From contig OZ024740.1 of the NCBI GenBank assembly GCA_964016885.1, positions 118,296,001 through 118,360,000 on the forward strand: a stretch of 64,000 bases of DNA, in the 5' to 3' direction. Made by a program: the position numbers and the translations under genes. Positions 20,205 to 20,393 of the stretch are shown here, piece by piece; positions within the stretch are counted from its first letter, which is position 1; every line of letters starts with the position of its first letter. The notes below the pieces were generated by a model that saw only the letters and a list, made by a program, of their open reading frames with translations, had not been told where the DNA came from and searched no databases. This DNA comes from Eledone cirrhosa. Its lineage: Eukaryota.

Positions 20205-20208
<4 letters not shown>

Positions 20209-20393
20209 TTAATATAGATGAGATTCTACAGGACTAGAACTGTTTCATTCATTAGAAATCATCACCTGATGATTTCTAATGAATGAAACAGTTCTAGTCC
20301 TGTAGAATCTCATCTATATTAAAACTTTTATACTCTGCTATGTATTGAGTACCTTACTTACTGTGGTTACCTCCGATTCAACCCGGAATAACG
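20205..20393 (+). repeat. 122-bp palindrome with hammerhead core plus 67-bp unique tail (fold-back Penelope-like terminal repeat)
   Basis: Arms 20205-20265 and 20266-20326 are complementary except the central C/C; CTGATGA starts at 20266, GAAA 20285, GTA 20302-20304. Confidence 0.85.

Follow-up and report, generated by a model that had tools for sequence, protein, structure and literature searches.

The question raised by this locus, within a 64-kb stretch of Eledone cirrhosa DNA (hereafter, the window), is why a palindrome should fold back exactly at the first nucleotide of a hammerhead catalytic core. A palindrome search of the 64 kb returns perfect 60-bp arms at 20205–20264 and 20267–20326, with CC at 20265–20266 between them; this bears out the first-pass annotation, made from the letters alone, which had described 61-bp arms with a central C/C and the axis between 20265 and 20266. 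With C3 of the core numbered +1 (window position 20266), the arms begin at -1 and +2. The long arm (plus strand, 20265–20393; element -1 to +128) is identical to a native copy, L045, at 128 of 129 positions and falls 5 bases short of the upstream limit, or wall, at -6 that is described below. The short arm (minus strand, 20205–20264; element +2 to ~+61) has the family's common short 3' end as its outer end, and the two meet at a blunt head-to-head junction (20265–20266) that shows neither microhomology nor insert. Only three short-loop palindromes with non-simple arms of at least 14 bp occur in the 64 kb, two of them being the units at 20205 and 60184.

Within the long arm lies a remnant of a type I hammerhead (plus strand, 20266–20310), recognizable from its sequence, and its parts follow one another as annotated: CTGATGA (20266–20272), a 3-bp stem II (20274–20283), GAAA (20285–20288), a 4-bp stem III (ACAG/CTGT; 20288–20303), GTA (20302–20304, with the predicted cut after 20304), the 3' strand of stem I (20305–20310) and then the tail to 20393. 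The reported absence of the 5' strand of stem I is accurate for five of its six bases; one C, the first of the central pair at -1, remains. Among the 125 Rfam matches to the window at E ≤ 1 there is no hammerhead, the window copy being devoid of stem I. The tail is one-sided (plus strand, 20327–20393; ~67 nt) and spans the interval between the short and long 3' ends; it had been called unique, yet its 22-mer has 8,903 exact matches genome-wide. As first described, the unit is embedded in (TA)n, with the target microsatellite on the left at 20148–20205 and (TA)n followed by (TG)/(TA) microsatellite on the right at 20394–20605. Fold-back joints of the same family are also present in contigs of public runs, which possibly represent the source sample, although none of the pieces listed from those contigs spans the window junction. 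An assembly artefact was rejected, as junctions vary among the 1,280 loci while the asymmetry of their ends is consistent.

The proposed origin from the pseudo-LTR (pLTR) of a Penelope-like element (PLE) bearing a type I hammerhead is confirmed by the family copies. The 24-mer of the family core has 4,379 exact matches in the species' own 3.0-Gb genome, against none for the reversed control. One copy, L031, forms a 5,966-bp unit (core to core) with an open 712-aa frame that encodes YRDDG at 347 and, as a C-terminal GIY-YIG-like motif, VY..YIG at 586–604; Pfam gives a weak GIY-YIG match that is below the cut-off (E 0.012) and no match to RVT_1 in this frame. The frame also contains DKT (for DKG) at 116, CNCLNKEAC (a CxCx5C linker) at 566, CDLC (CxxC) at 666 and CMH (CxH) at 694. 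A C-terminal GIY-YIG, DKT, CxCx5C, CxxC, CxH, a hammerhead and insertion into (TA)n are all shared with the Hydra-clade PLEs described in the available text of PMC8557442, and the family further has its hammerhead in the pLTR, partial tandems and inverted copies with a tail. Two features differ: at 38, L031 has RWR where the Hydra clade has RWK, and the unit is ~6 kb, whereas the clade is generally under 3 kb (PMC8557442), the excess being due to ~3 kb of microsatellite after the ORF. With these two exceptions, the L031 sequence matches the Hydra clade as described there and, judged likewise, the window unit is two head-to-head stubs of a hammerhead-bearing repeat of a PLE with Hydra-clade motifs. 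The supplements of PMC8557442 list Hydra families and hammerheads, and the window family may be among them. Another open frame, of 969 aa (L035:1926-4832, minus strand), lies inside a family-1 element; it has a weak reverse transcriptase match and a C-terminal VY..YIG but no significant BLASTP match to the L031 protein.

Several other features were noted in the window. Broken relatives of the L031 protein, 31–54% identical in pieces, occur at 61261–62597 and 44380–45462 (both minus strand), 13406–13678, 25541–25693 and 19388–19524; inverted repeats at 60756–61155 and 63592–64000 surround the first of these. There are also Helitron-like replication and Pif1 helicase fragments (36952–39170, minus strand; 54989–55732, plus strand), inverted matches of 403 and 160 nt at 35343–35910 and 55070–55636, and a LINE-type reverse transcriptase fragment with a weak PHD-like match (47279–48685 and 45282–46070, both minus strand; RVT_1 E 1e-27). 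One SINE-like repeat with weak tRNA-like Rfam matches is present at 10354–10515, 12461–12622, 29929–30054 and 60479–60630. Finally, a 21-bp inverted repeat with a 24-nt loop lies at 30508–30573, related sequence following the element in L026, and long inverted arms (184 nt, 96%; 303 nt, 82%) surround a microsatellite at 25929–27007.

Native copies carry a whole type I hammerhead, in which AGATTC at -6 to -1 pairs with GAATCT at +40 to +45. In L045, stems I, II and III comprise 6, 3 and 4 bp, respectively, the cleavage triplet is GUA, and CUGANGA, GAAA and NUH are all present. The G10.1-C11.1 pair at the base of stem II is missing from native copies, where U stands opposite U, an arrangement known from an axolotl family (PMC7229834, as available to us). 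The fold itself is marginal, at -5.3 kcal/mol against an MFE of -5.6 kcal/mol. Nine direct tandem units of the window family, ~1,080 bp each, are found in L038 (G000:C1:83679000-83688900), and three more in L039; each unit in L038 has a promoter region, a whole hammerhead, a tail and microsatellite, but lacks the ORF. The array resembles a retrozyme and could supply short capped templates. Additionally, an abundant 77-nt go-back joint (~-20 to +57; L045:4271-4347) in contigs of the public run X21 represents short tandem hammerhead units of the window family.

Where, then, do the palindromes of this family turn? They number at least 1,280, of which 900 have a spacer of 0–30 nt and 380 a spacer of 31–60 nt (both counted with exact anchors at +10), as against 97 that are centred near the predicted cleavage site at +40 (exact anchors at the predicted cut). 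The inversion points are thus far from uniformly spread along the repeat, in keeping with the first-pass annotation; that the palindromes arise mainly by run-off at the ribozyme cut was rejected, since only these 97 loci, with scattered ends, would be accounted for. We examined 100 junctions, namely, the first 50 listed of the 900 (with the window's own) and the first 50 listed of the 380; as these are the first listed on contigs C1–C2 and exact anchors were required, the sample favours young copies of one subfamily. The 200 arm ends include 61 at -5, 45 at -6, 14 at -7 (several via a shared base) and 4 beyond -7; a second peak of 15 at +1 coincides with an AG/CT microhomology, and the remainder are spread from -4 to +10. 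When the sample is weighted to the 1,280 loci, an arm at -5 to -7 is present in ~71% and an arm beyond -7 in ~2%; in the class with spacers of 31–60 nt, no arm passes -7 in 47 of the 50 examined. Since the ends pile up at -6/-5 with few beyond, there is a wall at this point, with trimming on its inner side. In the contigs of one public run, possibly the source sample, depth is up ~sevenfold and the largest loose end is at ~-3.

The turn is not, as had been assumed, fixed at C3; arm ends cluster 5–6 bases upstream of it. The axis and spacer length of the window copy are seen in two of the 50 short-spacer loci, itself included (~3% when weighted to 1,280), and its turn at C3 is likely a trimmed junction. 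Across the 100 loci, junctions vary from copy to copy, with short microhomologies or inserts, so that these are not mini-elements with fixed ends; a self-spreading mini-element or MITE was rejected in the same way, there being no fixed internal structure and the window's exact junction occurring once only. Some copies (L088, L351 and L373) are joined via the 6-bp complementarity of stem I, giving a hairpin whose loop is one hammerhead core; there are three such joins at two loci, one in L088/L351 and two in L373. Together with the peak at +1, these joins indicate that the ribozyme sequence does steer some junctions. In L009, L149, L210, L213 and L228, the junction inserts are copied from adjoining arm sequence, as in repeated priming during end-joining. 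(The automatic partner alignment mis-assigned L081, L091, L101, L102 and L110, and those rows were not used.)

The wall coincides with two features that would be expected of the 5' end of a capped transcript. Among 56 native upstream copies, 48 have a TATAWAWR box that begins 30 nt ahead of A(-6), three have it 32–33 nt ahead and five lack it, and the box is retained in diverged subfamilies; the bases around A(-6) fit a pyrimidine-A initiator. Moreover, position -7, natively C, is G in 35 of 54 arms from palindromes in which both arms reach -5 and the spacer is at least 4 nt (p ~1e-9 against 25%), and in 23 of the 30 arms of this set in which -6 is A. Genome-wide, the base before the AGATTC-core is G in 1,743 cases, as against 385 for A or T together. 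Of 42 sampled G arms, 29 have an inverted partner, 12 do not and one is native-like; the partnerless arms are mostly joined straight to AT-rich host repeats, and among A/T arms 3 of 20 are partnerless. Point changes in native copies make up 7 of 20 sampled A/T cases. In 3 of the 42, a stem I microhomology join provides a template for the G, and, by eye, ~12 could owe it to the partner arm. An extra G at the 5' junction of full-length L1-made insertions has been attributed to the mRNA cap in the portions of PMC11702581 available, and we infer that the non-native G before the wall is probably likewise the signature of a copied cap. The spacer TCTGA, which appears five times among the 100 junctions, is consistent with two cDNA ends, each carrying its cap base after run-off, that were joined across a single additional base. 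The base at -6 is A in 63 arms, T in 39, G in 18 and C in 4; being so often T or G, it is compatible with a capped start only if transcription also begins at -5 or the base next to the cap is misread. At the wall there also lie the 5' boundary of stem I and, following a T-rich tract, a CAG; this overlap makes start site, helix edge and possible splice acceptor inseparable in the window family alone. In D. virilis, the promoter of Penelope is internal and TATA-less (PMC2377424, as far as available).

The same breakpoint in a different family, at 60184, had been put forward against chance. That palindrome is genuine (arms within 60115–60252, 69 bp each with two mismatches, axis 60183/60184) and belongs to a second, unrelated hammerhead-bearing family (plus strand, 60115–60317, with a one-sided tail to ~60317), the core of which has 727 matches genome-wide and 286 short-spacer palindromes. 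Its axis lies at a natural 4-bp palindrome, AG|CT, where 4 of 50 listed palindromes of the family turn, the window's included; others turn at other short natural palindromes (both by eye). Among 70 tail-anchored copies (L205 and L311 look like duplicates), 15 long arms extend at least 240 nt upstream and one stops at -73; the other 54 have their ends anywhere from -38 to +104, with only 8 in -3 to +3. The upstream limit is broad (~-38 to -47) and lies 20–30 nt beyond stem I of that family; for this reason, a TATA box at -30 of the C3-proximal ends was rejected. Given this spread, the argument from a breakpoint common to both families falls, and an RNA end fits better than a fold.

At their outer ends, 99 of 100 palindromes combine one long 3' end (~+128) with one short (mainly ~+52 or ~+61). 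A subfamily marker at +46 to +50 (CTTCT or CATCT) is the same in both arms at all 92 informative loci (17 CTTCT, 75 CATCT; 8 loci with private changes were set aside), where free pairing of arms predicts 28 mismatches; such agreement would also be expected if a single cDNA had snapped back, or if the subfamilies had been active in different periods. In long inverted pairs, neither arm stops at -5/-6 (11 of 11), and insertions halt at the wall on both sides or on neither. Copies with an ORF are different: by eye, 16 of 30 (of 70) carry at least 100 nt of native upstream sequence, 4 of 30 start between -12 and ~+8, and none of the 30 has G-AGATTC at its 5' end. Most ORF-bearing copies thus begin elsewhere than at the wall, and full-length copies may largely be made by another route.

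We consider it probable that one capped, uncleaved RNA was reverse-transcribed from both strands of a single (TA)n cut, each strand acting as primer, and that both cDNAs continued to the 5' end of this RNA and ran off it. The RNA would be a polymerase II transcript, driven by the TATA box and starting at A(-6), the first base of stem I of the hammerhead. The element protein would nick both strands, cDNA synthesis starting at ~+52/+61 on one DNA end and at +128 on the other; in the window copy, the outer end of the arm at 20205–20264 would mark the start of the first reverse transcription, and the end of the tail at 20327–20393 that of the second. Each cDNA would reach the cap, often adding C opposite it and sometimes A, and the two new ends would be joined by end-joining or a template jump, with the loss of 0–15 nt. 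The window copy would have lost 5 and 7 nt, placing its axis at C3 by chance. Having neither promoter nor stem I, it is likely a dead end, and would give a long hairpin only if read through from outside.

The first-pass annotation had proposed instead that reverse transcriptase stalls at the folded hammerhead, at the junction of stem I and core, and that the cDNA then snaps back. The second arm-end peak at +1 (15 of 200), the marker that is always common to both arms, the joins directed by stem I complementarity (L088/L351 and two in L373) and the coincidence of the wall with the 5' edge of stem I would all suit such an event. Most arms, however, run through the core to -5/-6, where the G is non-templated and the TATA box lies 30 nt upstream; the +1 peak coincides with an AG/CT microhomology, no wall is found at the core of the second family and the hammerhead fold is marginal. 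Furthermore, an enzyme moving 3' to 5' should stall at the 3' side of a helix, and the many loci in which both arms are at the wall, each with its own G and one base between them (as in the five cases of TCTGA), are hard to derive from one folded-back cDNA. This reading is largely refuted by the arm-end distribution and the second family, and we regard it as very unlikely. Just as unlikely, in our estimation, is that the wall is a 3' splice site or a site of bound factors. The T-rich tract with CAG at -7 to -5 is present in native copies, and exons often end in AG, which would mimic -6/-5; a precedent exists in D. virilis Penelope, an intron of which ends at the 5' end of helix I (PMC4209133, in the portion available). 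Against this, the 42 G arms have no common upstream exon or leader (18 different trinucleotides precede the G), and a spliced exon or leader was rejected on this basis; splicing does not free an end at -6, a lariat should halt the enzyme at ~-20 to -40, and an arm ends at -10 to -23 in only 3 of 100 loci; a protein block leaves the G unexplained.

That the RNA ends at -6/-5 but is uncapped, having been cut by another activity, with an enzyme that prefers to add C, seems to us very improbable. At the wall ends, A is also frequently added without a template (read as T on the sense strand), so the enzyme does add bases freely; the 30-nt TATA spacing and the pyrimidine-A start nevertheless fit a polymerase II start. 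The arms that end at the hammerhead cut (+40), 3 of 20 sampled, are too few to serve as an uncapped control. Self-priming on an antisense template, proposed for head-to-head palindromes in the available text of PMC3846280, accounts for both the junction palindromes and the identity of the arms. It does not predict a wall 30 nt after a sense-strand TATA box, a sense-strand G on each arm, solo arms with the same end and G, or the pairing of long with short ends, and of the explanations considered here we hold it to be the most improbable.

A further reading may be entertained, albeit as a doubtful one: the stubs would be the Penelope equivalent of retroviral strong-stop DNA, and the palindromes failed jumps to the downstream repeat. 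Synthesis would start 60–130 nt inside a capped RNA that begins at stem I of the hammerhead, run off its end and normally jump to the downstream repeat, the end of which would be set by the ribozyme; the jump would build the pseudo-LTR and the partial tandems. In L258 (G000:C1:439678973), G-AGATTC is joined in direct orientation to ~+164 of another copy, which looks like a template jump after cap copying. A hint in the same direction comes from the 16 of 30 ORF copies, as they hold promoter sequence that would be missing from the 5' end of a transcript with its start at -6; templates that are circular or arise by read-through account for this equally well.

Much of this architecture has been published. 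For PLEs, the available text of PMC8557442 describes inverted 5'-truncated pLTRs, tails and microsatellite targets, and that of PMC3846280 palindromes at the inverted junction and a putative TATA/Inr in the pLTR. The endonuclease-positive PLEs of these papers, among them Pen2a of Adineta vaga (PMC3846280), likewise have head-to-head inverted pLTRs with a junction palindrome, a tail at one end, a pLTR hammerhead, a putative TATA/Inr and (TA)n targets. The window family differs in that the insertion consists of two stubs only, is present in at least 1,280 copies and shows an extra G next to a wall that is sharp to the base, and in its longer tail (~67 nt, compared with 30–40 nt); the inversion in the published elements is given without a fixed point in the portions available. 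In vitro, purified PAc, a Penelope/Poseidon protein from Anolis Poseidon, cuts and extends both strands, as reported in the accessible part of PMC11167929: there are two start sites that bound the tail, uncleaved RNA is the template and the protein is predicted to be dimeric. Extension of both strands, two internal starts, an AT-rich target and uncleaved RNA are all as proposed here; a term search of that paper found nothing on the joining of two cDNAs or on the cap. LINE-1 twin priming (PMC11702581, in part) is similar in that one RNA is primed by both DNA ends, the inversion junction is end-joined and an extra G occurs. There, the two cDNAs are copied from neighbouring regions that for the most part do not overlap, and priming of the second relies on microhomology; in the window family, by contrast, the two begin at fixed sites, span one and the same stretch and extend to the 5' end, so that a true palindrome results. 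Non-LTR retrozymes, as described in the available portions of PMC7229834 and bioRxiv 10.64898/2026.07.22.740005, are also short, non-coding repeats with a type I hammerhead and a link to PLE pLTRs, but they form direct tandem arrays with whole ribozymes, unlike the window unit, which is inverted, without stem I and without a fixed junction. As an inverted pair, and not direct tandem units, the window locus was rejected as a non-LTR retrozyme.

Palindromic inverted ends are, then, already on record, and the window locus is one ordinary dead copy of a published structure. The explanation by twin copying of a capped RNA was not found in the literature searched (mostly outside subscription journals), in which no paper was seen to tie PLE inversion points to a capped start. 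The origin of PLE inverted ends has been described as unresolved, with antisense self-priming as the standing proposal. Should the capped-RNA explanation be true, thousands of stubs would testify to the copying, from both DNA ends, of a sense template that was capped and uncleaved, and the stubs would map the start site of the element to the base without RNA data. Moreover, the mRNA would then begin with the hammerhead, and cleavage there would separate the cap from the rest of the transcript.
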